Assembly: GCA_031266915.1 (NCBI GenBank)
Contig: JAISAB010000024.1
Coordinates: forward strand, 23,571 to 87,570
Direction of reading: 5' to 3'
DNA length: 64,000 bases
Source: Rickettsiales bacterium
Lineage (GTDB): Bacteria > Pseudomonadota > Alphaproteobacteria > Rs-D84
Shown: positions 30,494-60,168 of the stretch, in pieces
Numbering within the stretch: position 1 is the first letter of the stretch
Layout: each line of letters starts with the position of its first letter
Program-made: the position numbers and the translations under genes
The notes under the pieces: model-generated
Told to the model about the DNA's origin: nothing
Seen by the model: the letters and a program-made list of their open reading frames with translations, nothing else
Database searches by the model: none

Positions 30494-30710
30494 AAAAAAC
30501 CACCGGAAAAACAGGTGGTTGGAGGTTAGCGACTATTATCAGAAATAGTGGTGGTATTCGATATATTCCCACACCCTCCAACCATTAAAATGTTGGAGCG
30601 AACACAGCAAAGTATCGCCTTGTGCCAGCGTCTGATAACGGGTCGCTAAACCCCATCGTCGGAATTCCCGACGACACTGGCATTCTATCCGATTAAGATT
30701 TGCGACGCAA
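30494..30710 (-). promoter_or_regulatory. structured leader RNA, copy A (promoter + P1/P2 + antiterminator/terminator)
   Basis: The promoter is TTGCGT-17-TAGAAT. P1 is UCGUCGG-GAAUU-CCGACGA. The four segments are CUCCAAC / GGUUGGAGG / CCUCCAACCACC / GGUGGUU followed by U6. GGAG and the ATG come next. Confidence 0.7.
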
Positions 30711-30753
30711 GCAAAAGCTTGTTATAATCGTTTCAAATAAAGAGGATTCAAAT

Positions 30754-31353
30754 ATGCTTGCAAAGATAAACTTGGTCGTGTTCGATTTCGACGGGACGCT
30801 GTCCGCGTACGACGCCAACATGAAATTCGGGAAATATTGTTTCAAACATTCGGTGCGACCGTGGCTGTTCCTGCCGGTGATTTCGGTTGCGGCAATCGGC
30901 CGCCTGTTCAATCCAGGCGGCGTCTGGTGGCGCCAGACCATGCGTTCGTTCCTGACCAAGGATATGGTGAAAAAATTAGCGCCCGGATTTATCTGCGAAC
31001 ACAAAATGGAACGTTTTGGCTGGGCGGCCGAGCAGGTTGCCGCCGAGCGCGCGGTTGGCAACAAAGTCATACTGATTTCCGCCGGGCCGGATTATTTGAT
31101 TCCGTTCCTGGTCGACGACATAAAGTTCGACGGCGTCGTCTGTTCGGTTATGAACAAAAACAAGCCATGGAAATACGAATTCTTTTGCTGGGGTAAATAC
31201 AAAGTCCAGGCCATGGACGAATGGGCGCGAAAAAACAGATACTTGCCGCGTTTGAAAAAATCTTATTCCGACAGCAGAACGGACATGCCGCTGATGGAAT
31301 TGGCTTGCCGGCAAGTGTGGATTAATCCAAAAACAGGTATGAGGAAAAATTAA
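30754..31353 (+). CDS. HAD-superfamily hydrolase
   Basis: The start is MLAKINLVVFDFDGTLS, which contains the DxDGT motif I. Later motifs include ILISAGPD and SDSRTD. Confidence 0.7.
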   Translation: MLAKINLVVFDFDGTLSAYDANMKFGKYCFKHSVRPWLFLPVISVAAIGRLFNPGGVWWRQTMRSFLTKDMVKKLAPGFICEHKMERFGWAAEQVAAERAVGNKVILISAGPDYLIPFLVDDIKFDGVVCSVMNKNKPWKYEFFCWGKYKVQAMDEWARKNRYLPRLKKSYSDSRTDMPLMELACRQVWINPKTGMRKN

Positions 31354-31450
31354 ATATAACGACGCATATGCTTGCATCCGACGCCGGTCATGTATGTCCA
31401 ATACACTCCCTTCGTCGGATGCGGCGCATCTGCATCATTCTATTTAATTT
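31347..31450. repeat. palindromic element of about 100 nt with a TCATGTAT..ATACAC core (copy 2)
   Basis: The 10-bp stem GCATCCGACG/CGTCGGATGC encloses GTCATGTATGTCCAATACACTCCC. The outer arms are AAATTAAATATAA / TCTATTTAATTT. Confidence 0.7.
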
Positions 31451-31506
31451 TATGCTCAACCGACAGGAATGTATCTTTTATAACTTATCCATTATAACTT
31501 ATAACT

Positions 31507-31533
31507 AAAAAACGGCCCAGCGGGCCGTTTTTT
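31507..31533. terminator. bidirectional intrinsic terminator
   Basis: A6-CGGCCC-AGC-GGGCCG-T6, overlapping the rmuC stop codon. Confidence 0.6.
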
Positions 31534-32404
31534 ATTCGTCCCCGAATTCCAATTCCTTTAACTTTTCTGCGCGGGGGGAAATCTTGTTAATAGATGTCTG
31601 CAGCTGTTCTATGTCAGTCGTCGTTTGAATAAAATGACGCTGCAGATTCGACGCCCTGTCGGACAGGCGGGACAGGTCGGTCAACAGCATATCCAATTCC
31701 TTTTTAATTTGCGCCGCAACACGTTTGATTTTTATGTCCGATAGCACCGCGCGGATTGTATTCAGCGTCGCCCACAATGTCGCTGGGGAAACGATAAAGA
31801 CTTTCTTGCGCGCGGCGTAATCGACGACACCCGGAAATTCGCGGTGCAATGTTTCAAAGATGGATTCGGACGCGATAAACATCATCGCGCTTTCCGCGGT
31901 CTTGCCGGGAATGATGTATTTTTCGCAAATCGCGTCGATATGCTTGCGGACATCCAGTTCAAATTGCTTTTTCGCCATGCCGTCTTCGGCCATTTTGGCG
32001 TACGATTCCAAGGGGAACTTGCTGTCGATAATCATATCGCCCGGCGGATAGGGCAGCCGGATGACACAATCGGGGCGTACGCCGTTTTCCAAAACGCATT
32101 GGAATTCATACGTCTCAGGCGGCATGACGTCCGCGACCAGGTCTTCCAGTTGGCGTTCGCCGAACGAGCCGCGGGCCTGCTTGCTGCCCATCAATATATT
32201 TTTAAAATTCGAAATATCGGTGCTGATGACCTTTAATTCCTGGGCGTTTTGGGTCAGGACGCCCAGGCGGTTTGCCAAAACCTCGCGCAATCTGACGTTT
32301 TCCTCGCGGATGGGGGACAGGTCCACGGTCTGTTTTCGGGCTATCAGCGCAATTAATAAAACGATAATCAGCGCGACGCCGCCCAGTATTAAATAACTTG
32401 TCAT
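31532..32404 (-). CDS. rmuC: DNA recombination protein RmuC
   Basis: It has an N-terminal TM segment, a coiled coil and then RGSFGERQLEDLVADVMP...IIDSKFPLESY, which is typical of RmuC. The Shine-Dalgarno AAAGGAAA favours the ATG at 32404. Confidence 0.8.
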   Translation of the reverse strand: MTSYLILGGVALIIVLLIALIARKQTVDLSPIREENVRLREVLANRLGVLTQNAQELKVISTDISNFKNILMGSKQARGSFGERQLEDLVADVMPPETYEFQCVLENGVRPDCVIRLPYPPGDMIIDSKFPLESYAKMAEDGMAKKQFELDVRKHIDAICEKYIIPGKTAESAMMFIASESIFETLHREFPGVVDYAARKKVFIVSPATLWATLNTIRAVLSDIKIKRVAAQIKKELDMLLTDLSRLSDRASNLQRHFIQTTTDIEQLQTSINKISPRAEKLKELEFGDE

Positions 32405-32445
32405 CTGAATTTCCTTTGTTAAAATCATTATAAAAGGAATACGAA

Positions 32446-33881: not shown

Positions 33882-33887
33882 AAAAAA

Positions 33888-34862: not shown

Positions 34863-34961
34863 AGAAATCAGCACGGAATATTAAAATTTAAGATATAAGA
34901 TTTGACGCCGACTAAATCTTATATCTGAAATCATAAATCTTAAATCCCACCATTTTCATAA

Positions 34962-35199
34962 TTGACTTTTGTTTTTATTTGAACTAGTATCAACATGCCG
35001 CGGAGAGTTTCCGCGGCGAGGTGTCAGAACCTCGGTCATACGCGTCGTGATATGTTGGCGCATTGTTGCGCCTTTGTTTTTATCACGATGGAAAATATGT
35101 CTCCTGACCTGGTCAGGAGGGCGGCTGAATATATAGAATAAGCGGCACAATTCGTATGATTGTTCTGAACCTCCTGACCGCCTTTATACGGCGGTTTTT
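34962..35199 (+). promoter_or_regulatory. structured leader RNA, copy B
   Basis: The promoter is TTGACT-17-TAGTAT. P1 is GCCGCGGA-GAGUU-UCCGCGGC and P2 is GAGGU-GUCAGA-ACCUC. The four segments are CUCCUGACC (35101), GGUCAGGAGG (35111), CCUCCUGACCGCC (35170) and GGCGGU followed by U5 (35190). Confidence 0.75.
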
Positions 35200-35226
35200 G
35201 CTTAACCAATGTAAAGGAGGATTGGA

Positions 35227-35799
35227 ATGAGATTCAGATTAATTTCAGTTTTTGCCGTCGCTGTGGCGCTTTGCGGCATGGACAGGGTATATGGTGCAGG
35301 ATTTCAATGTCCATCTAGCGGCGAATGCACTTGTCCGAACGGAGGGACTGGTTGTGTATGCGATGAAAATAATTATATAGATACATCCAAGTGCTGCAGA
35401 AAAGACTGTTCAAATAAATGCGCCGACGGCATCTGGAAACCCTCAAGCGTCAGTGGACATGAGGCTTATCACAATGCGCAGTTGCAAAAATCATCGTCGT
35501 GCACATGCGCAGACGGTTTGACAAGCTGCACCGCGACTTGCGGTTGCATTAACGTGGGGGTTTCAGACTACCGCTGCGCCGTCGGATACTATGGCACCAG
35601 TGTTGACGGAACATCAGGATGTACGCAATGCCCGCTGGTGGTCGGAGTGTATTCCGATTCGTTTCTAACATATGAAGCAAGGGGGACGACCGTTGATGCG
35701 GGAAACGGCAAATCGCAATCTGATTGCTATCTGGCAAACGGTGGAAAATATTACGACGCGACTGGGGATTTGACGCTAACGGGTAATTGTACTTACTAG
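35227..35799 (+). CDS. secreted cysteine-rich protein, paralog B
   Basis: The signal peptide is MRFRLISVFAVAVALCGMDRVYG. Shared motifs are DYRCAVGYYGTSVDGTSGCTQCP and the C-terminal SDCYLANGGKYYDATGDLTLTGNCTY. Confidence 0.8.
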   Translation: MRFRLISVFAVAVALCGMDRVYGAGFQCPSSGECTCPNGGTGCVCDENNYIDTSKCCRKDCSNKCADGIWKPSSVSGHEAYHNAQLQKSSSCTCADGLTSCTATCGCINVGVSDYRCAVGYYGTSVDGTSGCTQCPLVVGVYSDSFLTYEARGTTVDAGNGKSQSDCYLANGGKYYDATGDLTLTGNCTY

Positions 35800-35817: not shown

Positions 35818-37818
35818 TCACGCGCCCGGCATAGTTAAAATTACTTCTGCCTTTTGCCTTTCGCCTTCTGCCTTTCGGTGCCACCAGCGGTGCGACGGAG
35901 TGTATTCGATTTTTCCCGATTCATAAATGACAAAGCCGCCGCGCGGAATCTTGTGGTCGCATGTCGCGCTCTCGACCTTGAAATATGAAACGATAAAATC
36001 GATTTTTGGGTCGTTGCAAAACGCCGAGATGTTTCGGGCCAAGGGCACATATCTTTGAACATACGCCAGCGTCCAATTCGGCGTTTTGTAAACACAGACA
36101 CCGCGTTCGCACTTGCGGCGACGGTTGTCCGTATCGGCTGGCTCGTAATTCAAATGCTTCCAAGATTCGAAGGCGAAGTAATGGTTGGACGCGCGCGCCT
36201 TGTTGAATTCCAATTTGTCATTCGCGACGAACGCGACCAATTCATGGTCGTCCGTCGCATAGAACATTGGCCGCGGCCGCAGCGCCGCGACCGCCACGCC
36301 CGCCAGCACCAAGACGGCGAACATAACATAATTCGCCCGCCGGGCTTTGACGAACATCAGGCACAGAAACCCGAACAACATCAGCAGCAGCGCCGCGCCC
36401 GTTATGGGTGGAATTTGAATCTGGGCGAACGGCATGTCTGAAATCCTGTCGGCTGCTGCCAGCGCGAATCTGTAAATATTTTCGCTTAAATCCAGCGGCC
36501 AATGAAACCCGAACAGCGATGTTGCTGTTCCAATCATAACCAATGGCATAATCGCGAAAGAAAATATCGGCAGCAAAATCAGATTGCCAACAAGACCGTA
36601 AATCGGCAGAGAATAAAAATGATACGCCGCGAACGGCGCGGTAAAGATTGTCGCGACGACGGATGTCATCGCGGCCGCCCGAACTACGCGCGCGGCCTTG
36701 CGTGCAAACGACATCTTTTCGTGTTTGCTATCCCCGAAAAACCAAACCAGTCCGAATATCGCCGCGAACGACAGCTGGAATCCCGGCTGCATCACATAGT
36801 GCGGATTCATCAGAAATATCAGCATGAACGCGATGCAGACATTGCGCATTGAAAACGCGTTTCGTCCCAGTACGAATGCAGCGACTATCAGTGTAGTCAT
36901 CAGAAACGCGCGGACGGTGGCGACGTCGATTCCCGACAAGAACAGATAAAACAACAATCCCAGCCATGCGCAAATCATGGCGGGGTATCTGGCCGGAATA
37001 CGTCTGGTAATCGGCGCAACAGCGCGAAAGACAAGATAGAACAGCGCGAACAGCCACCCGCCGACCAATGTCATATGAAAACCACTGATTGACCAGACGT
37101 GGCCTACGCCGGTCGCCGTCCATGCGGGCGCGTCGTTTTTCGAAACCGCGTTCTTGTAACCCAGAACCAAAGCATCAGATAAAAACGAATTCGTTTGTCT
37201 GTGAATGTGATCGCGCAGATTATTTATCCCGGCGGATTCAGTTGCCGCCGCCGGTCGGTCTTTGTAATCATTCACATAGCCCGTCGCGCTGATTCCGTTG
37301 AAATACGCCCAGCGTGCGTAGTCGAACGCGCCCGGTGCCGATGGACCGGATGGCTTGAACAATGTCGCGGTCGCATTTATCCGGTCGCCGATTTTCGGCA
37401 AAGTATAATCGCCGCCAATGGACAGCCGGACCAGCGCGGTCCGGGTTTCGGACAAATTTTTGTTGAACAAATTCGCCGGAATTTTCACGAACAGGCGGGA
37501 CTTGTCATTCGTATAATCAATGTTCGCGACGACGCCCGTGATTTCCGCATTGCGCAGATTGTGTGACAATTGCGGCGTGTCGATAAAACGCGTGAATCCG
37601 CATGCGTAAAAGAACCCGAACAGCAGCAGCGCCGCACCGGTCGCGATAACGCCCGTTCGGCGGAAAATCAGAATTGCCCCGCACAACAATGAAATAAGAA
37701 TCGGAAAGGCGATATTCGGTTCGCGCGCCATTGAAAAGTACAGGCCCGCGCCGATGGCCATCACAAACGGCGACCACAGGAATAGATTTTGAAACTGATT
37801 TTCCAGGAAATGCTTCAC
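35818..37818 (-). CDS. comEC: ComEC/Rec2-family DNA internalisation channel protein
   Basis: 666 aa and polytopic. The competence-domain motif is GVGHVWSISGFHMTLVGGWLF. The start codon is GTG. No C-terminal metallo-beta-lactamase motif was seen. Confidence 0.8.
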   Translation of the reverse strand: MKHFLENQFQNLFLWSPFVMAIGAGLYFSMAREPNIAFPILISLLCGAILIFRRTGVIATGAALLLFGFFYACGFTRFIDTPQLSHNLRNAEITGVVANIDYTNDKSRLFVKIPANLFNKNLSETRTALVRLSIGGDYTLPKIGDRINATATLFKPSGPSAPGAFDYARWAYFNGISATGYVNDYKDRPAAATESAGINNLRDHIHRQTNSFLSDALVLGYKNAVSKNDAPAWTATGVGHVWSISGFHMTLVGGWLFALFYLVFRAVAPITRRIPARYPAMICAWLGLLFYLFLSGIDVATVRAFLMTTLIVAAFVLGRNAFSMRNVCIAFMLIFLMNPHYVMQPGFQLSFAAIFGLVWFFGDSKHEKMSFARKAARVVRAAAMTSVVATIFTAPFAAYHFYSLPIYGLVGNLILLPIFSFAIMPLVMIGTATSLFGFHWPLDLSENIYRFALAAADRISDMPFAQIQIPPITGAALLLMLFGFLCLMFVKARRANYVMFAVLVLAGVAVAALRPRPMFYATDDHELVAFVANDKLEFNKARASNHYFAFESWKHLNYEPADTDNRRRKCERGVCVYKTPNWTLAYVQRYVPLARNISAFCNDPKIDFIVSYFKVESATCDHKIPRGGFVIYESGKIEYTPSHRWWHRKAEGERQKAEVILTMPGA

Positions 37819-38032
37819 CGCCGGACACCAAAAGAATTTTGGTTAAAAGGCGGTCGGGACATTAAGCAAGTTATATTCCAAACCTCTGTCGCCTTTGGGT
37901 TTCCCCTGTGGTATAGCAACAGTGTCCCGACCTTTTTGGTCGAGACATAAATTAATCAGGAATATGGGTGCTTAACCCTAATGATGTAATTTACATCGTG
38001 ATAAATATACAATTTATCCTGTGGCTGTACAA
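37816..38032 (-). promoter_or_regulatory. structured leader RNA, copy E (start-codon-sequestering variant)
   Basis: The promoter is TTGTAC-17-TATATT. The segments are CUCGACC / GGUCGGGAC / GUCCCGACCGCC / GGCGGUG. The final GUG is the comEC start codon, and no U-tract follows. Confidence 0.6.
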
Positions 38033-38043: not shown

Positions 38044-38167
38044 AATAGTCATTAGTCTATAGTCGTTAGTCAGTAGTCAATAGTGGATAGCGAATAGCAC
38101 ATAGCAATCTAGCTGTAATACTACAAACTATAAACTACTGACTAACGACTATAGACTAATGACTATT
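38044..38167. repeat. heptamer-built palindrome (TAGTNNN units)
   Basis: A perfect 34-bp inverted repeat, AATAGTCATTAGTCTATAGTCGTTAGTCAGTAGT (38044-38077) / its reverse complement (38134-38167). The spacer also has a 7-nt period. Confidence 0.9.
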
Positions 38168-38235
38168 GACCATATTTATTTCCTTGCGGGGCGGGGGAAA
38201 TTTTTTTTACAATAAAAGTCTGCGGGGGCGAAGCC

Positions 38236-39859: not shown

Positions 39860-40795
39860 TTAGGTTGTCGACGGTGTATACTCGCAGTCCTCTGTATGCG
39901 TGAAAGTCCCGATTTCATCGTAATAGGTCCCCGCGGGCAGTTTGCAAGAGGCGCTGGTCTTTCCGGTCCCAGCGGCATTAGTTCCGTACGCCTTTATCGT
40001 CAGCTCGATGTTAGTGTAAACACCATCTGCCGCCGCGCATCGTGCGCATGAGTATTCTTTGGAGGGCGCAGTATAAGTATAATATCCTGCGTTGCAGGTG
40101 GGGGTGGTGCTGCCGGCCGGGCAGGTGGCGTTTCTGGGGCACAAGATGCATGACGACTGAAACATTCTGTCTTTAATATATCCCTCGTTGCATACAAAAT
40201 CCGTTGCGTTGCACACCGAATTTTCTGGGCATGCATTGCATGTAAGGAATTTATAGTAATATCCTGTGTTGCAGCTGGGGGTGGTGGTGCCGGCTGGGCA
40301 AGTCGAGTTTTGCGGGCAAGCAATGCAATTGGTGCTGGTGCCGTAATATCCGCCCTTGCATCTGTACTCTGTGCTGCGGGCGGAACATGCGCCGGGGCTG
40401 GGAGAGGATGCTGACATTGTGCAGGTCCCGTCGTATTGCCGCGACTGGTAACCACGGTTGGCAACATCACTCCAACTGCTGGGGTTGTCGCACGCCGTGC
40501 ATTCTACTTTTGTAAAAGCGCCCCCTGAACAATACCAATAAGTGTTGTTTGTGCAGCTGTATACCATGGTATAGTTGGATATATAACCCATATAGGTGTA
40601 TCCACTACCCATATACTCATTGGTCGTAGAGCATGAGTAGTACTTGCGGGCGGTACCATCTGAGTATACAAGCGCAATATATCCCCCAGTCACTATAGAT
40701 GAAGCACCAAATCCATAGCAATCATCAAGCGCCTTGGCGTTTCCGGCGGATAAAGCAAGAAAAACAGCAAAACAGACCAGACGAAGACTTTTCAT
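39860..40795 (-). CDS. secreted cysteine-rich protein, paralog C
   Basis: The signal peptide is MKSLRLVCFAVFLALSAGNAKA. It has EYRCKGGYYGTSTNCIACPQNSTCPAG, repeated C.ACP.NS.C...GYY units and the C-terminal SCKLPAGTYYDEIGTFTHTEDCEY. Confidence 0.8.
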   Translation of the reverse strand: MKSLRLVCFAVFLALSAGNAKALDDCYGFGASSIVTGGYIALVYSDGTARKYYSCSTTNEYMGSGYTYMGYISNYTMVYSCTNNTYWYCSGGAFTKVECTACDNPSSWSDVANRGYQSRQYDGTCTMSASSPSPGACSARSTEYRCKGGYYGTSTNCIACPQNSTCPAGTTTPSCNTGYYYKFLTCNACPENSVCNATDFVCNEGYIKDRMFQSSCILCPRNATCPAGSTTPTCNAGYYTYTAPSKEYSCARCAAADGVYTNIELTIKAYGTNAAGTGKTSASCKLPAGTYYDEIGTFTHTEDCEYTPSTT

Positions 40796-40818: not shown

Positions 40819-41000
40819 AAAAAACCGCCAGGAAATTGGCGGTCGGGGAGTTAGAAAAATCACTTAATGACTGACCCCGCCGGTCTTCGCCCGATCCGTC
40901 GCCGCTTGCGGCGACGGATTAAAGGCTGTTTTATAACCGACAGCTCCCCGACCAAGCGGGGATACACAATAAAAGGCGCAAATGCGCCGCTATTGTGCGG
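40819..41000 (-). promoter_or_regulatory. structured leader RNA, copy C
   Basis: The segments are CCCCG / GGUCGGGGAG / CUCCCCGACCGCC / GGCGGU followed by U6, then GGGAG and the ATG. The interior carries the GUCGCCGCAAGCGGCGAC hairpin. The promoter is not clear. Confidence 0.55.
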
Positions 41001-41261
41001 ATTTCGACACGTCTTCAACGTATCGCATTAAGCAGGCTTTTCTAAGGCCCCGAACCCAAATCCTTTTGGATTCAAACGAATTGTAAAACATTCCGGATGT
41101 TATTTCAATGTAATTTTTTTGCATGGTTTTTATGACGCTTCGCACCATCATGTTTTGCGCATGCCGGGACAAGGCGGCCGTATCCGGCGGAAAATTAAGA
41201 ATTAATAATTAAGAATTATGGTTTGCCGCCGCGCGGCCCGTTTATTCTTAATTCTTATTTT

Positions 41262-41582
41262 TTAATTCTTAATTCCGAATATGAATTCAGGATTTGCGGA
41301 CAGGGCAATAATCGCGTCCATGTTGTCGTCAGCGCTGGCGCGCTGGCGCCGTTGCTTGCCGCATTTCTCGCATTTGTGGGTAATTACAAAGTGGTCGCCA
41401 ACGGGCGCAACGGCGACGGGTCGCATCATTCCGCCGCAGGTGCCAGCCCTGTCGCCCGGGTTGACATCCACGTCGCGCGACCACAGGCATTTCGGGCAAT
41501 GGTTCGTATAGCCGCCGCCGTGCACGGCCGCTCCGCAATGCGCGCAGGTAAAGTCTTCAATGATGCGGATGAATTTTTTCAT
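41262..41582 (-). CDS. RNHCP-domain zinc-ribbon protein
   Basis: FTCAHCGAAVHGGGYTNHCPKCLWSRDVDVNPGDRA matches the RNHCP signature, and a second CEKCG ribbon is present. Confidence 0.7.
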   Translation of the reverse strand: MKKFIRIIEDFTCAHCGAAVHGGGYTNHCPKCLWSRDVDVNPGDRAGTCGGMMRPVAVAPVGDHFVITHKCEKCGKQRRQRASADDNMDAIIALSANPEFIFGIKN

Positions 41583-41658
41583 GAAAGATACGAGATAGGA
41601 GATACGAGATGCGAGATATTCAACGCCGAACTAATATCTCCTATCTTCATATCTGGAA

Positions 41659-43508: not shown

Positions 43509-43630
43509 AATATAAAACAACTAGTGCATAGTGATTAGTTTATAGTGCATAGTTACTAGTTTACTAATCACTATTAACTATGCACTAATCACTAATGTTT
43601 TGGATTTTTGATGCTATCCTTGATATAAGA

Positions 43631-43880: not shown

Positions 43881-43892
43881 GCGATGATTTAA

Positions 43893-44144: not shown

Positions 44145-44156
44145 GTTTTTTCGACT

Positions 44157-46853: not shown

Positions 46854-47104
46854 AACGAAAGAACCGCCCAAAAAAGGCGGTCAGGAGGTTACAAACAATC
46901 CACATGAAATTGTGCCGTGTCTTCGATATATAACATCAGCCCTCCTGACCAACAGCCAGGAGCTTATTCTTCGCCGCAATAACAAAAAACACGCGAAACG
47001 CGCGCTGTTTAAAATTGCGACGCATGTGGAAGGAGTTTGTACACCCCGTCGCGGGAACACCCCGACGACAACATCAGTGTAATTCAAAGCGCCCCGCGTT
47101 TCAA
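46854..47104 (-). promoter_or_regulatory. structured leader RNA, copy D
   Basis: The promoter is TTGAAA-17-TACACT. P1 is GUCGUCGGG-GUGUU-CCCGCGAC, with one bulged U. The segments are CUCCUGG / GGUCAGGAGG / CCUCCUGACCGCC / GGCGGU followed by UCUUUCGUU. AGGAGG and the ATG come next. Confidence 0.7.
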
Positions 47105-47786: not shown

Positions 47787-48665
47787 ATGAAAAATCCATC
47801 ATCCATCATCCATCATCAATTATCCATCGCGTCTCTGCCGCCGATTCGCGAAATGATGGTTGCCGCAGGATTGGCGCCCAAGAAACATCTGGGGCAGAAT
47901 TTCCTGTTCGATTTGAATTTGACCGGAAAAATCGCGCGCAGTGTGCCGGACATAGAACACACCACTGTTGTAGAGGTCGGGCCCGGCCCGGGCGGATTGA
48001 CGCGTGCGCTGCTGATGGCGGGCGCCGCGCGCGTTATCGCAATTGAAAAAGATAAAGCGACCGAACCGATTTTGTCGCAGATTGCGGCCGCCGCGGACGG
48101 TCGGCTGGATGTCATTTACGGGGACGCATTGAAATGGATGACAGATGATGGACAATGGATAATGGAAGATTACGCAGTATGTTCGAATTTGCCTTATAAT
48201 ATTGGAACGGAATTATTGATTCATTGGCTGCACATTATGGCCACATCATCCATTATCAATCATCCATCATCACTGACTTTGATGTTTCAGCGCGAAGTGG
48301 CCGAGCGTATCGTCGCCCATGTCGGCGACGGGCAGTATGGCCGCCTGGCCGTTTTGACGTCGCTGGTCGCGGACGCCAAGATATTGTTCAATGTTCCCGC
48401 CGCCGCGTTCTTTCCCGCGCCCAAGGTACAGAGCGCGGTTGTCCAAATCATCCCGAACGCGCGGAAAATCGCGTCCTTGCAAGGTCTGGATAAAATTGAA
48501 AAATTAACCGCGAAACTGTTCGGCCAGCGCCGCAAAATGATTCGCGGAATCATCAGGAATGTCGACTGGTCACAATTTGGATTGACCGGGACCGAGCGCG
48601 CCGAGGAATTGCTGCCCGAAAAATTCGCGGAAATGGCAGAGGCATTAATAACCAGTAGCGAATAG
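47787..48665 (+). CDS. rsmA: 16S rRNA (adenine1518/1519-N6)-dimethyltransferase
   Basis: Recognisable blocks are KKHLGQNFLFD, VVEVGPGPGGLT, NLPYNIGT and GRLAVL. The variable regions are encoded by CATCATC-type heptamer repeats. Confidence 0.9.
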   Translation: MKNPSSIIHHQLSIASLPPIREMMVAAGLAPKKHLGQNFLFDLNLTGKIARSVPDIEHTTVVEVGPGPGGLTRALLMAGAARVIAIEKDKATEPILSQIAAAADGRLDVIYGDALKWMTDDGQWIMEDYAVCSNLPYNIGTELLIHWLHIMATSSIINHPSSLTLMFQREVAERIVAHVGDGQYGRLAVLTSLVADAKILFNVPAAAFFPAPKVQSAVVQIIPNARKIASLQGLDKIEKLTAKLFGQRRKMIRGIIRNVDWSQFGLTGTERAEELLPEKFAEMAEALITSSE

Positions 48666-48753
48666 CATATAGCGAATAGCAGGTAGCGCATAGCTGCTTG
48701 AGTGTAATGCCATCAGCTATACGCTATTTGCTATATGCTATTCGCTACTGGTT
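48650..48753. repeat. heptamer-built palindrome (TAGCNNN units) overlapping the rsmA stop
   Basis: A 31-bp inverted repeat, AACCAGTAGCGAATAGCATATAGCGAATAGC (48650-48680) / GCTATTTGCTATATGCTATTCGCTACTGGTT (48723-48753), with 1 mismatch. Confidence 0.9.
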
Positions 48754-50646: not shown

Positions 50647-51162
50647 ATGAAGAACACATACAAAATCATTTCGATTATTTTCGGGGCCGTTTTGCTGGAC
50701 CAGATCACCAAGGGGGCTTTGGTTTACCTGCTGACGGGCGCGGTGCCGGTGTTCGGCCGCGCGTGGGACATCATACCTTTTCCGTACATGATGGCCCATG
50801 TCACGAACTTTTTCAATATAGTCTTTACTTGGAATCCGGGCACGTCGTTTTCGCTGTTCCGCGCGCTGGGCGAATCCGCGCCGTTGGTGATAATTATCCT
50901 GACGGGCGTCGTTATCGGCATGCTGGGCCACTATTTGTTTATCCGCGCCGCGTCCCATGAAAAGTGGCCGCTGGCGCTGATTGTCGGTGGTGCGCTGGGC
51001 AACCTTGTCGACAGAATCCGTTTCGGCGCGGTTATCGACTTCCTGGATTTTCACGTCGGCGGATGGCATTGGCCGGCGTTCAACGTCGCCGATGTCTGCA
51101 TCGCGGTGGGCGTGGGATTGTATTTATTAAACTGGTTGGTTAACAAACATCGTAGTTCGTAA
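50647..51162 (+). CDS. lspA: lipoprotein signal peptidase II
   Basis: Recognisable blocks are DQITKG, FNIVFTWNPGTSFSLF, GNLVDR and DFLDFHVGGWHWPAFNVADVCI. Confidence 0.9.
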   Translation: MKNTYKIISIIFGAVLLDQITKGALVYLLTGAVPVFGRAWDIIPFPYMMAHVTNFFNIVFTWNPGTSFSLFRALGESAPLVIIILTGVVIGMLGHYLFIRAASHEKWPLALIVGGALGNLVDRIRFGAVIDFLDFHVGGWHWPAFNVADVCIAVGVGLYLLNWLVNKHRSS

Positions 51163-51238
51163 TCCGTAATTCGTAATCCGTAGTTGGATTGTCGGATTAC
51201 CTATTACCTATTACCTATTACCTATTGCGGAGCAAATA

Positions 51239-54842: not shown

Positions 54843-57200
54843 TCAGGTCATTGGCGGAAAACAATCCCCGCCGGCGGCCGGACAACAATTGAAACCGTCT
54901 GCGCCCATATCGGTATAGGTCTCGCCGGTGCAGCAACCATTGGCGTCCGGCGCCGTTTTGTCTTCGCACTGCAGCGCGGCGGGCGGCGTTTCAACCGGCA
55001 ATTGTTTGAACGGATTCTGTACCGTGCCGTTGTCGTTATAATTCAGGCCCAATACGTTTTCGTTATACTTTTGGGTGCCGGTCTGCAGTTTGTCCCATTG
55101 TTTGGTCTTGTCATCGTAGACCGCGTTACTAGTCGTTTGCTGGTTCTGGTACACAGCCGCCTGTTTCGCGTTGTTGATTGCCTTGTATTGCGCGGACTGG
55201 CAATAAAACAGAACAGTACGGTAATCATAGCCGGCCGCTTGGATTTGCTTTTCCTGCCCCTCATTTACGCCGCCTGTGAAATTTCCATTGGCGTCTCTTT
55301 TGCAATATCCATCCATATCGAACGAGCGCACCTGACCGGTCATGGAACCGGCGTTTTCCGCCGACTCACCTATGCCGGATGGTCTTCCCGGGTTATCAAC
55401 GCGTGGGTTGGAGCCATACGTCTCTATGGCGCATTTTTTATTGCTTTCCGTCGGGGCGCCGCATGTAACCAGCAAATCCACAGGCGAAAATACGGTAATG
55501 CGCGTGCCGGCGGCAATCGAGAAGGGCGGCACGGTGTTGTCCATCATATCGACCAACAATTTCTGAGCCACCTTGTTCCAGGCGGTGACGATTTCATTCT
55601 TGGCCAGTTCGGACGAGCGAACTTGGCCGCTTTGCGTCACCGTGTTATTGTCTAAATCAATCTGGTTGACAAACCGATCTGAAATCGGCGCAATCATATT
55701 TACCGCCGCCGGCACAACCGCCGTCAGCATCGGCATGACGAACTGTTCCAGATAATCCGTCGAGCCGCGGCCCGGCACGCCGATTCGTCCCTGGGCGTCG
55801 CCGGAAAACGGATTTTGTCCGGTGCCGAAATTAAATTCGACGCCATCGGGGCGGACGAACTGATACCAGTTGACCTGCATCCGGCCGATGGCCTTATAAG
55901 GGCCGGGCATATCGCCGGTGACATAGCCGTACAAAGTCGTTCCTGTTGGCACAATGATGGTGCGGCCATTGTCGGAATAAACATTCCGGTCGACGGTCGC
56001 GATGATGGGCAATATGTGGTCGTCGGTTATCAGTCTTTGTTCGGCGCGGATTTCAGAAACGATTGTCGCCGGTATCGGCTTGTATTGCCGCAGTATGAAC
56101 GTACGGTCATAAGGCGCGCTGGACACGACTGTGGTGCCGCTGGACGTCATAATTTTGTCTGTCTTTTGCACAAAACCCGGATTAAGAACCGACAGTCTTT
56201 GCGAAGTGCCGTACGCTGCGCCGGCCAAATCTGCGGATTCCAGCTGACGCGCGCGGTTGACATTCTTAGGCGCGACCGGATTTGACAGTTGCGGAATCGC
56301 ACCGTTGGTAATCGACGCATAGCCGATATGGTCCGCATCCGTCCCAATCTTGCGTCCGGAATTATTTATATCCATGATTATGCCGTTGTCGGGATTATAA
56401 GTCCCGGTCGGGGAATCGCAATTCTTGTCCGAAAAGGGATGAAAGAAATATGCGCCGCCCTTGGGCCTGATCCATCCGATTTGTTGGCCCGATGCGCCGT
56501 ATCCCGGGAACGCGAAATCGGAACAATCTTCGGCCGACAGCTGCAGCGCCGGCGCCGCGACGACGAGCGGTGCGGGCGACGGTTCGGGCACCACAGGGAC
56601 GCTTGGGATAATCGGCGCGACCTTTTCCTGAACAATCGGGGCGGGCGCCGCCGGTTTATGTTCAGGTTCAGACTCAGGTTCTGGTTCAGGCTTCGCAACC
56701 GGGGTGGCCGCGACCGCGATGGTAATCTTGTCGGTGCGCTTTATGATGTTTTCCAGCTGCGACGCGTCATGCCAGTCGACGAACAGCGACGCGCCGCTGA
56801 CATCGGCCGGTATCGTCGGCGCGTATTCGACGCTGATGGTGCACGAAACCTTGTCGCTGATTCCGATGTTCGGGCAGGTCGTTTTCGGTTTCGACAATCC
56901 GGGAACGTCATTGGATGGCGGCCGGACCGCGTCGATTTTGACCGGCTTGTCGGCCATAACGGTAAATGTTTGGGTTTTGACCTCTCCGACTTTGGTCGTT
57001 GTCCAATCGACGGTATCGGGGTCGATGGCTATGGACGCCGGAACGGTTTCCGTCGGTTCGGCAACCGGGTTCTTGTCACCTTTTAGCAACAGAACCAGCA
57101 AAATCAAGACAACGATGAACGCTGCGGCCAACAACAGCCACTGCACATGTTTCGGCGTGTTTTTTCTGAGTTCTGAAAATTGCGTTTTTAATGATTGCAT
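54843..57200 (-). CDS. VirB10/TrbI/DotG-family type IV secretion protein with extra N- and C-terminal modules
   Basis: It has an N-terminal TM segment and a Pro-rich linker (KPEPEPESEPEHKPAAPAP). The TrbI-like core is ATVDRNVYSDNGRTIIVPTGTTLYGY...MQVNWYQFVRPDGVEF...IAAGTRITVFSPVDL. A Cys-rich tail of about 200 aa follows. Confidence 0.8.
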   Translation of the reverse strand: MQSLKTQFSELRKNTPKHVQWLLLAAAFIVVLILLVLLLKGDKNPVAEPTETVPASIAIDPDTVDWTTTKVGEVKTQTFTVMADKPVKIDAVRPPSNDVPGLSKPKTTCPNIGISDKVSCTISVEYAPTIPADVSGASLFVDWHDASQLENIIKRTDKITIAVAATPVAKPEPEPESEPEHKPAAPAPIVQEKVAPIIPSVPVVPEPSPAPLVVAAPALQLSAEDCSDFAFPGYGASGQQIGWIRPKGGAYFFHPFSDKNCDSPTGTYNPDNGIIMDINNSGRKIGTDADHIGYASITNGAIPQLSNPVAPKNVNRARQLESADLAGAAYGTSQRLSVLNPGFVQKTDKIMTSSGTTVVSSAPYDRTFILRQYKPIPATIVSEIRAEQRLITDDHILPIIATVDRNVYSDNGRTIIVPTGTTLYGYVTGDMPGPYKAIGRMQVNWYQFVRPDGVEFNFGTGQNPFSGDAQGRIGVPGRGSTDYLEQFVMPMLTAVVPAAVNMIAPISDRFVNQIDLDNNTVTQSGQVRSSELAKNEIVTAWNKVAQKLLVDMMDNTVPPFSIAAGTRITVFSPVDLLVTCGAPTESNKKCAIETYGSNPRVDNPGRPSGIGESAENAGSMTGQVRSFDMDGYCKRDANGNFTGGVNEGQEKQIQAAGYDYRTVLFYCQSAQYKAINNAKQAAVYQNQQTTSNAVYDDKTKQWDKLQTGTQKYNENVLGLNYNDNGTVQNPFKQLPVETPPAALQCEDKTAPDANGCCTGETYTDMGADGFNCCPAAGGDCFPPMT

Positions 57201-57202
57201 CT

Positions 57203-57285
57203 TACCGTAATCCGTAATCCGTAATCCGTAATCCGTAATCGGAGGAATCGGATTACCGATTACCGATTACCGATTACCGATTACG
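57203..57285. repeat. heptamer-built quasi-palindrome (CCGTAAT)5 ... (CGATTAC)5
   Basis: It fills the VirB9-like/VirB10-like intercistronic gap. The arms pair at 6 of 7 positions per unit, with a regular C:C mismatch. Confidence 0.85.
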
Positions 57286-57287
57286 AT

Positions 57288-58757
57288 TTACTGTATCCTT
57301 ACCACGTGGCAGTTAGCGCCGCTGAACTTCAGCATTTGGTCGCATAGTTTCTGGGCGCTGTCTATGTCTGACATCGGGCCTATGCGCAAGCGGTACAGCC
57401 GCGCGGCGGACGAATCGGAGCCCAAATCGCCGACGCCCTGTTCGTCCACTGCGAAAAAGACCATATTCTTGTAAGGGGTCAGCAGGCCTTGGCCGTCTTC
57501 GCCGCTAAGCTTTGCCAGCAAAGACGTCCAATAATCGTTCAGTGCCTTGACCGATGTGTCCGAACGCAGTTCGACCGCGACGCCCGCCTGGTTGCTGCTT
57601 ATCAGCGGGATATTTGTCTGTGGCAGGTATGCGCCGGTCGTGTTTCTTTCTGTCGGAATCATCATAACGCCGCCTTTGCCGCCGGCATATCCGCCGCCCA
57701 TGGGCGCACTGTACGACATTGTCGGCGCGACGCCGTAACCGTTCGTCGCCGCCATAGCCGGCTGTTGCCCGCCGCCGACATAGGTGCCGTTCAGCGACTG
57801 GCTGCTGTACATGGACTGGGCGACGTTCGCCTCGGCCAGGGCCATGACGGACGCAGTATCCGCAATCAGGAACGGCTTTTCGCGTTTCTTGATGCATACG
57901 ATTCGCTGGCCGCTGCGCAGTATCATGTCGCCGACGGCCTCGATTATCAATAATCTTCCGTTTTCGCCGTCGGTGCGAAATCCGACCGGGGATTCGCCGC
58001 CTTCGACCAACAGGGATACGACGGGACGCTGGGTCATCGCGATAACCTTGTCGCCAAAGTCGATATAGGTGAAGATTCTATCGCGCCACACGCGTTCGGG
58101 CGCGATGACGTAATCGTCGGGATTCGGCACAAAGATGTCCAAATCGAAACGGAATTCAGACGGGTCGATTTTCATGGATTTAATCCAGCCGTAATCTTCG
58201 CCGTCTACGCCCAAAGCAGCAGAACCGCCGGTGGAGGCCTTTTTAAAGATGGAATTCATGCCCGAAGACGGCGCGCCGGTCGCTGACGCCGCCGGCAGTG
58301 CGCGGTTGCCGTCCAACACGACGTCGACCTGAGAATAGGTGATTTCGCTGCTGTTTGCCGGTTCGCTGCGCAGATAGAAAATGTATTTATTTCCGCTTTT
58401 GCCCGTGACAATCAGGTTTGTGTCCGCACCCATATTGGTTCCCTCGGGCGTGATGTACATCGAGCGTCCGCCGTTTTGCGGCGCGAATTGGAACAGGTCG
58501 CTGTTGCCGACGACGCCGTCCTCGATTTGTTCGCCATCGGGCAGGTTAACCATAGTGACCATGCCATTGCGCAGCTTGATGGGCAGAACGCTGCCCGCCG
58601 ACCAGGTCAGCTGGGCGTATCCGGGTTTCAAGGAACCCGCGGCCATGTTCGCATTCGGGTTATCCCAAGCCTCTTGGATGCCGACCTCGGCTGCACTCGC
58701 GGCGCGCGCGCCGCAAAGAATAAAGAATAAAGAATAAAGAATAAACTTTTTTAACAT
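57288..58757 (-). CDS. VirB9/TrbG/DotH-family type IV secretion protein fused to a C-terminal SPOR-like domain
   Basis: It has a signal peptide. The VirB9-like N-domain is VLPIKLRNGMVTMVNLPDGEQIEDGVVGNSDLFQF...TNLIVTGKSGNKYIFYLRS. The C-terminal LYRLRIGPMSDIDSAQKLCDQMLKFSGANCHVVR is SPOR-like. Confidence 0.75.
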   Translation of the reverse strand: MLKKFILYSLFFILCGARAASAAEVGIQEAWDNPNANMAAGSLKPGYAQLTWSAGSVLPIKLRNGMVTMVNLPDGEQIEDGVVGNSDLFQFAPQNGGRSMYITPEGTNMGADTNLIVTGKSGNKYIFYLRSEPANSSEITYSQVDVVLDGNRALPAASATGAPSSGMNSIFKKASTGGSAALGVDGEDYGWIKSMKIDPSEFRFDLDIFVPNPDDYVIAPERVWRDRIFTYIDFGDKVIAMTQRPVVSLLVEGGESPVGFRTDGENGRLLIIEAVGDMILRSGQRIVCIKKREKPFLIADTASVMALAEANVAQSMYSSQSLNGTYVGGGQQPAMAATNGYGVAPTMSYSAPMGGGYAGGKGGVMMIPTERNTTGAYLPQTNIPLISSNQAGVAVELRSDTSVKALNDYWTSLLAKLSGEDGQGLLTPYKNMVFFAVDEQGVGDLGSDSSAARLYRLRIGPMSDIDSAQKLCDQMLKFSGANCHVVRIQ

Positions 58758-58830
58758 TTCTATTTCTCCAGAATTTGTAATTAAAGAAACAAGACGAAAG
58801 AAATTTATTCTTTATTCTTTATTCTTTATT
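58715..58830. repeat. heptamer-built palindrome (AGAATAA)4 ... (TTATTCT)4 spanning the VirB9-like start
   Basis: The left arm (58715-58745) encodes residues 5-14 of the VirB9-like signal peptide. The right arm (58804-58830) is intergenic. The loop contains GGAG and the ATG. Confidence 0.85.
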
Positions 58831-58848
58831 CACTTGGATTTCATGCCT

Positions 58849-59523
58849 TTATATGAAATCCAACGGGTCGCCGCGGCCAACCTCCACCTTGTATTCCGAT
58901 ACTCGGATGCCCAGCGGATTGTTCAGCCGTTCCGTCCATTTTATCGTGTTTTCCAATTCCAATTTCACTTCGATTGTATAATCTTTTTCGGTGGTCTGTC
59001 CATCACTATTTGTGCAGAAAAACCTGAAGCTGACCGCATAGGTGTTCAACTCGTTCGTTTTCGGGTCGCGCGCGCGCCGCGCGATGGGTCCGGTGAATTC
59101 GACCGGACAACGGAATTCGAAATCCGGCGGCTCGGCCATATAAGCCATCCACATGCGGGTTTTCATGAATTCTTGATAGACCTCGGGTGTGCTCCACATA
59201 TATACAGTGCCTTCTTCGCCCTCGTTGGTCCACTTGCGCTGCATCGCGGCGGCGCTGGGAATGATTTCGTTGCGGGCCTTGATGTATTCCTTGATAAAGG
59301 CCTGTTTATAAACCTCTATATTATCCTTTTCCGGCGTGAAGTCTGACAGCTTTATTTCCATCTCGGCCCGTGGCTGGGTTGTCAGAAAGAAAACCTGGGT
59401 CCGATTAAGCGGATACATCTTTGCCAATGTGACGACAAGAACCACCACCACAACCAAGCTGGCGGCGAATACGAAAGTCATTAATCTTGACATCAAAATA
59501 GGGGGTTCGATACTGTCGGCCAC
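58849..59523 (-). CDS. VirB8/DotI(IcmL)-like type IV secretion protein
   Basis: It has a single N-terminal TM segment (FVFAASLVVVVVLVVTLA) followed by a periplasmic domain of about 190 aa. It lies directly upstream of the VirB9- and VirB10-like genes. The start is uncertain, either GTG 59523 or ATG 59493. Confidence 0.6.
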   Translation of the reverse strand: MADSIEPPILMSRLMTFVFAASLVVVVVLVVTLAKMYPLNRTQVFFLTTQPRAEMEIKLSDFTPEKDNIEVYKQAFIKEYIKARNEIIPSAAAMQRKWTNEGEEGTVYMWSTPEVYQEFMKTRMWMAYMAEPPDFEFRCPVEFTGPIARRARDPKTNELNTYAVSFRFFCTNSDGQTTEKDYTIEVKLELENTIKWTERLNNPLGIRVSEYKVEVGRGDPLDFI

Positions 59524-59680
59524 GCTCCTTATCCTCTCCTTTGTTAAAGGATTGTAGAAAAAAAACAACGGGCCGCGCAAGCAAAAAAATAGCAATTAGC
59601 AAATATCAAATAAGGCAGAAATAAATTTAAGATTTATGATTTGGCGCAAGCTTGCCTACTTCTGCTTTTTGCCTTATTTG

Positions 59681-59863
59681 CTATTTTCCCACGGCAGGTT
59701 CGACGGGAAATCTTGGCAAGACGCTGACTTGTCCACCAAAGACAAAAATATCAGTCCCCCTTGAAACAACTTTAACAGCATATCTTCTGGGATTTCCAAT
59801 TTGCCGTTTGCGTATTCCATAAATTGCCTTTGCGCGATTTCTAATAATCAGGCCGCCTGACAT
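59681..59863 (-). CDS. small basic hypothetical protein between leader F and the T4SS genes
   Basis: 60 aa with no Shine-Dalgarno. It overlaps the end of a 24-codon ORF that does have an AAGGA Shine-Dalgarno. Its coding status is uncertain. Confidence 0.3.
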   Translation of the reverse strand: MSGGLIIRNRAKAIYGIRKRQIGNPRRYAVKVVSRGTDIFVFGGQVSVLPRFPVEPAVGK

Positions 59864-59954
59864 TGCGTCATATTGAGTTTTTCGTGCGCAATGCGCAAAG
59901 AGTCACCGATAATGTTATGCATTTCAAGTCCTTGGTTTTGTAAAACTTTTTCAA

Positions 59955-60168
59955 TAAAAAAAGACCACCATTCGAAAGGTGGCCGGGAGTTCATCGGTCA
60001 GAAATACTTAACCCCGTTGCCTTTGGCCGAAACCTGTTATATAGCAACAGCATCCCGACCTTGGCCGGGACACTTGGTAGATTGGTACTTCGGGGCGATG
60101 AAACCCGTTCACACTAACAAATGTCTATTCAATACAGGGCATTATACACTATTTTTCTGAATTTGCCA
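59955..60168 (-). promoter_or_regulatory. structured leader RNA, copy F (upstream of the VirB8-10-like operon)
   Basis: The promoter is TGGCAA-16-TATAAT. The segments are UCCCGGCC / GGUCGGGAU / UCCCGGCCACC / GGUGGUC followed by U7. The interior CUGUUGCUAUAUAACAGG..CCAAAGGCAACGGGGUU is shared with copy E. Confidence 0.65.

Follow-up and report, generated by a model that had tools for sequence, protein, structure and literature searches.

A 64,000-nt stretch of the genome of a Rickettsiales bacterium of the Rs-D84 lineage (GenBank assembly GCA_031266915.1, contig JAISAB010000024.1, positions 23,571 to 87,570; GC content 49%), here called the window, contains nine homologous leader-RNA units, which we name A, B, C, D, E, F, G1, G2 and H. 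These units are real, structured leader RNAs with a terminator/antiterminator switch, and we cautiously favour the view that each one attenuates transcription in cis, as a leader composed of two modules that occur also in the immunity and antirepressor regions of prophages. The RNA is about 150–255 nt long. It runs from its own sigma-70 promoter through two hairpins (P1 and P2, the 5′ domain), a variable linker and segment 1 (seg1) into a three-way junction, which is followed by segment 4 (seg4) and a U-tract. The junction is formed by a stem of segments 2 and 3 (seg2:seg3) around two elements, Pa, whose loop is invariant, and Pb; J3 denotes the strand that links Pb to seg3. Outside the junction stem, two copy-specific pairings connect the 5′ domain with the junction.

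RESULTS

Nine copies of one leader family

Two types of copies are distinguished: type 1 (A, B, D, G1 and G2) and type 2 (C, E, F and H). A covariance model made from 40 diverse type-1 sequences (R1) was used to scan the whole 64-kb window with filters off. Type-1 copies scored 70.8 (A), 79.5 (B), 79.2 (G1), 76.6 (G2) and 59.9 bits (D), and the next-best sense-strand matches were H at 20013–20103 (16.3 bits), E (15.9 bits) and F (11.1 bits), all at the expected positions and over the full length. A second model (R2), for which only E, F and H were used, gives 83.7 (H), 99 (E) and 99.2 bits (F) on these, its own training copies. It recovers C (43.2 bits, E = 7e-10) as well as two type-1 copies over their full length, D with 25.8 bits and B with 19.6 bits. 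This cross-detection by R1 and R2 puts all nine copies into one family. In MAFFT alignments A, B, G1, G2 and D align closely with each other, and E aligns with F. G1 and G2 are tandem duplicates, 87% identical, within a 264-bp duplication (43621–44145).

An original prediction, made from the letters of the window, had placed eight homologous units between 30494 and 60168, and the two models recover all of them there. Its count was one too low: the ninth copy, H, lies at 19996–20274 on the minus strand. Copy C was correctly seen as a unit, but its true start is further upstream, with a promoter at 41080–41108 and P1/P2-like hairpins of its own. The proposed sigma70-like promoters are recovered by a promoter scan for B, G1, G2, D and E, with the C promoter in addition, and are visible by eye for A (TTGCGT-17-TAGAAT) and F (TGGCAA-16-TATAAT).

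Covariation supports mutually exclusive helices

RNAalifold, applied to a plain MAFFT alignment of the 40 diverse sequences, predicted the junction independently, with a 10-bp seg2:seg3 stem and compensatory changes at 13 of 19 pairs. When 118 sequences were considered, 95.5% of the cells of the junction were paired compared to 79.4% in shuffled controls (0 of 500 shuffles reached the observed level) and 27–53% with slid partners; 16 of the 19 real pairs were compensatory. Among homologs, P1 shows compensatory changes at 7 of 7 pairs, and the second pair of P2 alternates between G-C (43 sequences), A-U (14) and G-U (8). The two remaining helices were examined in a MAFFT alignment fitted to no structure: pairing reaches 95% in seg1:seg2, where three pairs are compensatory, and 93% in the terminator helix seg3:seg4, where five are. 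Seg1, seg2 and seg3 occur in matched flavours (AACC, UGACC, AGCC, UGCC and others) with zero cross-class combinations. The pairings 1:2, 2:3 and 3:4 are mutually exclusive, and all of them covary. Thus, the P1 stems with GNRUU loops, P2 and the four segments read as initially described, and the covariation, mutual exclusion and coordinated segment changes claimed for them hold with about 120 homologs from other genomes, in which each helix has compensatory changes.

Of 120 homologs, 116 have a terminator hairpin with a T tail, as do eight of the nine window copies. The view of the 3:4 pairing as an intrinsic terminator stands for these; the exception in the window is copy E, which has no U-run. 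In 108 of the 116 homologs having a terminator its 5′ arm begins 0–1 nt past the CCUCC of seg3, a segment that resembles an anti-Shine-Dalgarno sequence. The terminator overlaps the 3′ strand of the junction stem, mostly by 4–5 nt, i.e. by the pairs adjoining the U-tract. Since the 2:3 stem takes these 4–5 lower base pairs of the terminator, we assign the junction as the antiterminator (gene ON) and the combination of 1:2 and 3:4 as the OFF state. According to constrained folding the two states are close in energy, with a median difference of –1.5 kcal/mol that is approximate, a few sequences being cut inside T-rich terminator loops.

Two variations of this layout were found. In copy E the end of the seg3:seg4 hairpin falls on the comEC start codon, a GUG at 37816–37818; this suggests the same switch with a translational output. 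Copies B, C and D contain an extra terminator-like hairpin (GGCGC..GCGCC followed by a U-run) between the 5′ domain and seg1, which is kept throughout the UGACC class of homologs; termination at this point would free a short IsrK-like RNA containing P1, P2 and the pairing sites.

The 5′ domain pairs with the junction through copy-specific sequences

The loop of P2 is complementary to J3, with at least six contiguous Watson-Crick pairs in 89% of 84 copies, compared to 5% when the P2 of another copy is used. Likewise, the 12 nt located 3′ of P2 (strand ‘a’ in Table 1) are complementary to the Pb loop in 86% of cases, versus 3% with the partner taken from another copy. Both pairings are present in all nine window copies, and their sequences differ in each. 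Between G1 and G2 both sides of the second pairing have changed (AUGUG/CACAU versus UCAAGA/UCUUGA). For E, F, H and C, whose 5′ domains were missed by a separate 5′-domain covariance model (R3, which includes the –10 region), P2 and the pairing sites were located by visual inspection and string search.

J3 and the Pb loop are therefore a private, copy-specific code, while the Pa loop is invariant. Both long-range pairings had been overlooked in the original prediction, which described the interior of the 2:3 stem as conserved; this is correct for the Pa loop, but J3 and the Pb loop are variable, J3 covarying with the P2 loop. The Pa loop (GAAUAUAUyGAAUAA in type 1, AUAYnnACA...GAA/AAAG in type 2 and in the Rfam family RF02221) is the sole long invariant element among more than 120 copies, and within RF02221 no part is better conserved. 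It coincides with none of the pairing partners found and may be a protein or ligand site.

The junction is related to sRNA-Xcc1

At Rfam gathering thresholds the whole window contains only tRNAs, and no family matches any of the copies. Below these thresholds, the small RNA (sRNA) family sRNA-Xcc1 (RF02221, gathering score 53) aligns to copy C over full model positions 1–87 with 43.8 bits (E = 1e-4). Values for homologs are 43.8, 39.7, 38.5 and 36.6 bits, the last one for a type-1 sequence and the other three for type 2. The 2:3 junction is thus a diverged, sub-threshold relative of sRNA-Xcc1. The original statement that the fold was not recognised as any known riboswitch class, for which an Rfam search had been proposed as a check, survives at gathering level and has to be modified below it, given these matches of 36–44 bits. 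Since every copy falls below Rfam thresholds, the family is left unannotated by standard pipelines.

sRNA-Xcc1 has been detected as an 88-nt RNA in Xanthomonas (PMC2996969). A pattern representing the RF02221 consensus matched at least 120 viral contigs (L120–L239), and sRNA-Xcc1 elements of phages, taken as a control, score 70–87 bits with RF02221. In these elements Pb and J3 are complementary to a region that immediately precedes the Shine-Dalgarno sequence of the next gene and extends into it (71% have at least 7 pairs, versus 8% in controls), and they often match an upstream site as well. The downstream gene is of the Bro-N antirepressor type in 52 of 98 cases and an open reading frame (ORF) of about 80 amino acids (aa) in 31 of 98. 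In one prophage locus (L137, 7560–9500) sRNA-Xcc1, isrK and C4 elements are adjacent and are followed by four more sRNA-Xcc1 copies with a 380-nt period. In phage P1, a′b′ of C4 pairs with a1b1 and a2b2. The arrangement of phage sRNA-Xcc1 elements suggests a similar C4/CI-like two-site antisense control, which is not described in the literature examined.

The 5′ domain of copy A gives weak full-length alignments to c4-a1b1 (RF03163, 18.1 bits) and isrK (RF01394, 16.2 bits); for the other copies no IsrK or c4-a1b1 match was reported at E ≤ 10. The 5′ domain is possibly related to these families. IsrK is a structural homolog of SeqA, and read-through of its terminator yields an mRNA isoform that is targeted by the short RNA; the read-through isoform takes a fold that requires the middle hairpin region to pair over a long range (PMC4825925). 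In phage P4 CI, seqB pairs with seqA and seqC, resulting in premature transcription termination (PMC4825925).

Distribution among genomes

A type-1-core pattern gave at least 119 matching stretches in a one-genome-per-species collection, nearly all of them in gut and rumen metagenome-assembled genomes (MAGs) labelled as Alphaproteobacteria, Rickettsiales or Candidatus Enterousia. With R1, 118 copies were obtained from the window and 99 loci, including some with no match to the pattern. Several of these MAGs share housekeeping genes with the window at about 70% nucleotide identity. Genomes of Rs-D84 bacteria are smaller than about 1 Mb (PMC12306168).

The backbone genes of the window are syntenic with those of other Rs-D84 MAGs. 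When the window at 29800–31500 is compared with locus L094 (5600–7200), however, the leader-plus-gene unit of L094 occupies another intergenic gap than that of copy A. A leader and its gene may therefore come and go together as a cassette. Locus L080 (2800–3050) contains tandem type-1 copies 174 nt apart, one of which has a TATAAT box a few bases before seg1, so that its 5′ domain is apparently missing.

Downstream genes and neighbourhood

In 108 of 127 homologs a Shine-Dalgarno-bearing ORF of the same orientation starts 40–80 nt past CCUCC, i.e. 10–45 nt past the U-tract. This leaves no space for a separate promoter, and the gene therefore depends on read-through. The downstream genes of homologs mostly encode Cys-rich signal-peptide proteins without a Pfam domain, small XRE-like helix-turn-helix (HTH) proteins and BspA-like repeat proteins. 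In the window, as had been noted, the leaders precede genes for four Cys-rich secreted proteins, ComEC and VirB8/9/10 of a type IV secretion system (T4SS) (Table 1). The proteins encoded after A, B, C and D are distant paralogs with 22–31% identity. Copy H is followed by a short ORF and then by a gene for a protein of 353 aa that matches nothing in Pfam. For the ComEC protein an exact sequence look-up gave no record.

The genes flanking G1 and G2 encode pyruvate kinase (convergent) and D-Ala-D-Ala carboxypeptidase (divergent). Each of the two copies is followed by an extra hairpin (CUUCCAUA/UAUGGAAG with a GGGAG loop) and a second, strong terminator (GGGGGG...CCCCCC and a U-run). A candidate ORF of 25–42 codons (..EVDS[AV]HAGGLINP..) runs through the hairpin and second terminator after both copies.

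Table 1. Positions of the leader copies, their parts and neighbouring features in the window (docking sequences are written as RNA)
Feature	Coordinates	Strand	Remarks
Copy H	19996-20274	-	Type 2; ninth copy, outside the range of the original prediction
H promoter	-35 20269-20274; -10 20246-20251	-	
H 5′ domain	P1 20218-20237; P2 20177-20192; ‘a’ 20168-20175	-	
H switch	seg1 20105-20111; seg2 20092-20100; seg3 20019-20027; terminator 19996-20020	-	
H junction interior	Pa 20055-20090; Pb 20035-20054; J3 20028-20034	-	
H docking			P2 loop UUUCAAA : J3 UUUGAAA; ‘a’ UAUCUAUG : Pb loop CAUAGAUA
Copy A	30494-30710	-	Type 1
A promoter	-35 30705-30710; -10 30682-30687	-	
A 5′ domain	P1 30656-30674; P2 30640-30654; ‘a’ 30631-30638	-	
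A switch	seg1 30592-30599; seg2 30575-30583; seg3 30517-30525; terminator 30494-30520	-	
A junction interior	Pa 30548-30574; Pb 30533-30548; J3 30526-30532	-	
A docking			P2 loop UUAGCGA : J3 UCGCUAA; ‘a’ UUAUCAGA : Pb loop UCUGAUAA
Gene after A	29865-30464	-	199-aa Cys-rich protein, signal peptide; no Pfam match
Copy B	34962-35199	+	Type 1
B promoter	-35 34962-34967; -10 34985-34990	+	
B 5′ domain	P1 34997-35017; P2 35018-35033; ‘a’ 35036-35042	+	
B internal terminator-like hairpin	35057-35081	+	
B switch	seg1 35101-35109; seg2 35111-35120; seg3 35170-35179; terminator 35176-35199	+	
B junction interior	Pa 35121-35146; Pb 35147-35163; J3 35164-35169	+	
B docking			P2 loop UCAGAA : J3 UUCUGA; ‘a’ CAUACG : Pb loop CGUAUG
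Gene after B	35227-35799	+	190-aa Cys-rich protein, signal peptide
Copy E	37818-38031	-	Type 2
E promoter	-35 38026-38031; -10 38004-38009	-	
E 5′ domain	P1 37983-37997; P2 37966-37978; ‘a’ 37959-37965	-	
E switch	seg1 37938-37946; seg2 37924-37932; seg3 37852-37860; seg3:seg4 hairpin 37818-37853	-	
E junction interior	Pa 37886-37922; Pb 37868-37885; J3 37861-37867	-	
E docking			P2 loop UUAAGC : J3 GCUUAA; ‘a’ AUAUUCC : Pb loop GGAAUAU
Gene after E, comEC	35818-37818	-	666 aa; Pfam Competence 1.8e-53, DUF4131 2.4e-21
Copy C	40819-41108	-	Type 2, long Pa insert; reaches further upstream than first predicted
C promoter	-35 41103-41108; -10 41080-41085	-	
C 5′ domain	P1-like 41059-41072; P2 41035-41049; ‘a’ 41026-41032	-	
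C internal terminator-like hairpin	40968-40988	-	
C switch	seg1 40957-40961; seg2 40944-40953; seg3 40841-40850; terminator 40819-40844	-	
C junction interior	Pa 40877-40943; Pb 40858-40872; J3 40851-40857	-	
C docking			P2 loop UUAGAAA : J3 UUUCUAA; ‘a’ CUUAAUG : Pb loop CAUUAAG
Gene after C	39860-40795	-	311-aa Cys-rich protein, signal peptide
Copy G1	43696-43880	-	Type 1, orphan
G1 promoter	-35 43875-43880; -10 43852-43857	-	
G1 5′ domain	P1 43825-43843; P2 43809-43823; ‘a’ 43800-43804	-	
G1 switch	seg1 43791-43797; seg2 43777-43785; seg3 43720-43728; terminator 43696-43723	-	
G1 junction interior	Pa 43752-43776; Pb 43735-43751; J3 43729-43734	-	
G1 docking			‘a’ AUGUG : Pb loop CACAU
Extra hairpin and second terminator after G1	43631-43695	-	
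Copy G2	43960-44144	-	Type 1, tandem duplicate of G1
G2 promoter	-35 44139-44144; -10 44116-44121	-	
G2 5′ domain	P1 44089-44107; P2 44073-44087; ‘a’ 44064-44069	-	
G2 switch	seg1 44056-44063; seg2 44041-44049; seg3 43985-43993; terminator 43960-43988	-	
G2 junction interior	Pa 44016-44040; Pb 44000-44015; J3 43994-43999	-	
G2 docking			‘a’ UCAAGA : Pb loop UCUUGA
Extra hairpin and second terminator after G2	43893-43959	-	Same pair as after G1
Copy D	46858-47104	-	Type 1
D promoter	-35 47099-47104; -10 47076-47081	-	
D 5′ domain	P1 47048-47069; P2 47032-47047; ‘a’ 47023-47029	-	
D internal terminator-like hairpin	46981-47006	-	
D switch	seg1 46955-46963; seg2 46941-46950; seg3 46879-46888; terminator 46858-46882	-	
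D junction interior	Pa 46914-46940; Pb 46895-46913; J3 46889-46894	-	
D docking			P2 loop UACAAA : J3 UUUGUA; ‘a’ CCACAUG : Pb loop CAUGUGG
Gene after D	46284-46829	-	181-aa Cys-rich protein, signal peptide; weak Ephrin_rec_like match
Copy F	59956-60168	-	Type 2; P1 not obvious
F promoter	-35 60163-60168; -10 60141-60146	-	
F 5′ domain	P2 60091-60107; ‘a’ 60085-60091	-	
F switch	seg1 60063-60071; seg2 60052-60060; seg3 59981-59989; terminator 59956-59984	-	
F junction interior	Pa 60014-60050; Pb 59996-60013; J3 59990-59995	-	
F docking			P2 loop UUCAUCG : J3 CGAUGAA; ‘a’ GAAGUAC : Pb loop GUAUUUC, one G-U pair
Genes after F	54843-59922	-	24-codon HTH-like fragment (59848-59922), 60-aa ORF, then virB8/9/10
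virB8	58849-59595	-	VirB8 1.8e-12
virB9	57288-58757	-	CagX 6.1e-21
virB10	54843-57200	-	TrbI 1.1e-15
Heptamer arrays	57205-57288; 58715-58831; 63229-63373; 51151-51226; 48656-48747; 38044-38170		
Further heptamer arrays	41244-41275; 41586-41618; 43522-43563; 45399-45428; 47794-47828		

The gene located just upstream of H (20327–22153, minus strand) is OLD-family-like (AAA_15/AAA_21 ATPase with an OLD-like TOPRIM domain), a type typical of anti-phage defence. Beside the virB operon, a divergent tRNA-Trp gene (60350–60423, plus strand) is separated from the copy F promoter by about 180 bp. Intergenic tandem arrays of heptamers (or 14-mers) in 4–5.6 copies are scattered over the window, often paired in opposite orientation 10–80 bp apart; (CCGTAAT)x5 and (GATTACC)x5.6 fill the virB10/virB9 gap. 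Some arrays adjoin leaders (upstream of E, downstream of G1), and at L017 and L079 homologous leaders have similar, TAGTGATTAGTG-like repeats nearby. A Neisseriaceae origin, suggested by comEC, the T4SS and the GC content of 49%, was rejected, since the window has none of the DNA uptake sequence dialects.

DISCUSSION

A docking model of the switch

Pairing of the P2 loop with J3 and of the P2 3′ flank with the Pb loop docks the 5′ domain onto the junction. We propose that docking would close the open junction to give a four-way junction, fully paired and able to stack on the 2:3 stem, and that read-through would be favoured. If docking were blocked, the 1:2 hairpin would stay in place and transcription would terminate. 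A candidate blocker is an isoform, short or terminated, of the RNA from the same locus, which would bind the nascent 5′ domain in trans; docking might also be lost if the 5′ domain failed to fold. By analogy with P4 CI, P1 C4 and IsrK, such an isoform may be the natural effector, a suggestion to which we give less than an even chance. The hypervariability of the pairing sequences would insulate each copy from its many paralogs. In copy E and in the few homologs lacking a U-tract, the target of the switch would be translation initiation.

Several observations weigh against this attenuation model. Transcription starts, terminated products and read-through are all predicted. The docking helices topologically fit both the ON and the OFF state, and that docking favours ON we infer from geometry only. 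The invariant 14-nt Pa loop is not accounted for by an RNA-only mechanism. The covariation of seg1, seg2 and seg3 comes mainly from two large sequence classes and a few minor ones, and therefore corresponds to a modest number of independent events. G1 and G2 have no gene directly downstream, so some copies may act only as small RNAs. As for the origin of the modules, all RF02221 scores in the family are under the gathering score, copy A does not reach the gathering scores of c4-a1b1 (46.7 bits) and isrK (50 bits), and R3 finds nothing at E < 1 in phage isrK elements, which its –10 region may penalise. Given the weak scores and this miss, the link of the 5′ domain to IsrK/c4-a1b1 is suggestive only.

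A more far-reaching version of the model, which we consider rather unlikely, is that a phage-immunity-type antisense module (an IsrK/SeqA-like 5′ domain with an sRNA-Xcc1 junction) has been domesticated by reduced-genome gut Alphaproteobacteria as genome-wide self-addressed leaders, the short RNA of each locus acting in trans on its own nascent transcripts only. If this were true, Cys-rich proteins, ComEC and the T4SS could be set ON or OFF locus by locus in a heritable, bistable manner, without a DNA change or a protein regulator.

Alternative explanations

The invariance of the Pa loop and its position outside the pairing partners would be expected if an RNA-binding protein recognised this loop and stabilised the junction, as at BglG/SacY or ANTAR targets, and the overlap of junction and terminator is also that of protein-stabilised antiterminators. 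Yet no candidate protein has been identified, and protein-dependent antitermination leaves two hypervariable copy-specific elements unexplained. We regard it as an unlikely replacement for the attenuation model, with which it could coexist.

The original prediction implied a riboswitch, in which the junction or the Pa loop would bind a small molecule (e.g. a second messenger controlling genes for surface and secretion functions) and shift the balance between 1:2 and 2:3. The switch-like layout with states near equal in energy, the occurrence of both terminator-type and start-codon-type outputs, and the many copies per genome ahead of surface-protein genes would all fit; in some bacteria, cyclic di-GMP riboswitches are likewise present in many copies before surface-protein genes. 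However, no Rfam riboswitch matches, the downstream genes are heterogeneous and non-metabolic, and the variable parts of the fold are copy-specific RNA-RNA partners: J3 covaries with the P2 loop instead of being conserved, unlike a ligand pocket. Moreover, the phage relatives are found ahead of antirepressor genes and pair at the ribosome-binding sites of these genes, as an antisense RNA would. The gene set and the variable junction strand make a metabolite riboswitch the least likely interpretation of the Pa loop, and we find a riboswitch improbable overall.

Equally improbable in our opinion is that every unit is a stand-alone gene for a trans-acting sRNA, whose CCUCC (seg3) or variable loops would pair with other mRNAs and whose closeness to the next gene would be accidental. 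Every unit does come with a promoter and a terminator of its own, G1 and G2 are orphans, seg3 is anti-Shine-Dalgarno-like, and the Xanthomonas sRNA-Xcc1 is an 88-nt sRNA (PMC2996969). But 85% of homologs are located 10–45 nt upstream of a same-orientation ORF without a promoter of its own, the variable loops pair inside the same RNA, and the match of the Pb loop and J3 to the 90 nt past the terminator equals that of unrelated copies used as a control, with no excess complementarity.

Leader-peptide attenuation, with a ribosome on a short ORF over seg1 freeing seg2 for seg3, is very hard to reconcile with the data: the 1:2/2:3/3:4 layout is trp-like and a 17-codon ORF spans seg1 in copy B, but A, D, G1 and G2 have no conserved start codon or Shine-Dalgarno sequence upstream of seg1, homologs typically have GAYGAAAAA...CUCC without AUG there, and no conserved ORF was seen in the window copies and homolog upstream regions inspected.

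Implications and comparison with known systems

For the widespread sRNA-Xcc1, annotated for 15 years as a trans-acting sRNA, the data suggest a testable mechanism as a leader-embedded reader of two short variable sequences, like C4/CI. With nine copies in 64 kb, Rs-D84 bacteria appear to control many secreted, cell-contact, DNA-uptake and T4SS genes by one leader family. The combination of a constant switch scaffold with hypervariable intramolecular pairing codes may be a design principle that lets paralogous RNA switches coexist without cross-talk.

As in sRNA-Xcc1, an outer stem encloses Pa (with the AUAC-A / GAA internal loop), Pb and the junction strand, and is followed by a hairpin whose 5′ arm is C-rich. 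In both families the variable elements used for recognition are the Pb loop and J3, and both occur in multiple copies or tandem arrays (PMC12189769). Unlike sRNA-Xcc1, type-1 copies lack the inner Pa helix (AAUAUAU-n-GAAUAA versus AUACAAuA-[helix]-GAAuaa). Phage and Xanthomonas elements are complementary to a downstream site at the ribosome-binding site and often an upstream one as well, whereas the window family pairs only upstream, with its own 5′ domain; its output is an intrinsic terminator directly overlapping the stem, and it is found at chromosomal genes of reduced-genome Alphaproteobacteria, not at prophage antirepressor, symE or cassette genes.

The 5′ domain shares with IsrK, c4-a1b1 and P4 SeqA two adjacent hairpins directly after the promoter, the second one being GGG-UUnGC-CCC-like, a linker with a site complementary to a downstream RNA element and, in B, C, D and the whole UGACC class, a terminator. 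In contrast to these RNAs, type-2 5′ domains are more diverged, and there is no orf45/anrP-type target. With P1/P7 C4 and P4 CI (RF01695) the family has in common a leader-encoded RNA that recognises sites in the same transcript through two short variable elements. The fold of C4/CI is, however, not this three-way junction, RF01695 has no match in the window, the window family has no downstream target site, and RNase P processing and trans action are established features of C4/CI. Terminator/antiterminator riboswitches and trp attenuators resemble the family in their exclusive anti-antiterminator, antiterminator and terminator helices in a 5′ leader and, as for copy E, in an alternative output on the start codon; they differ in that no ligand, leader peptide or tRNA is evident here and part of the sensing surface is copy-specific RNA-RNA pairing. 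What is most likely new with respect to all these systems is the use of an sRNA-Xcc1 junction, possibly together with an IsrK/SeqA-like 5′ domain, as a multi-copy, self-addressed terminator/antiterminator leader in reduced-genome gut Alphaproteobacteria.

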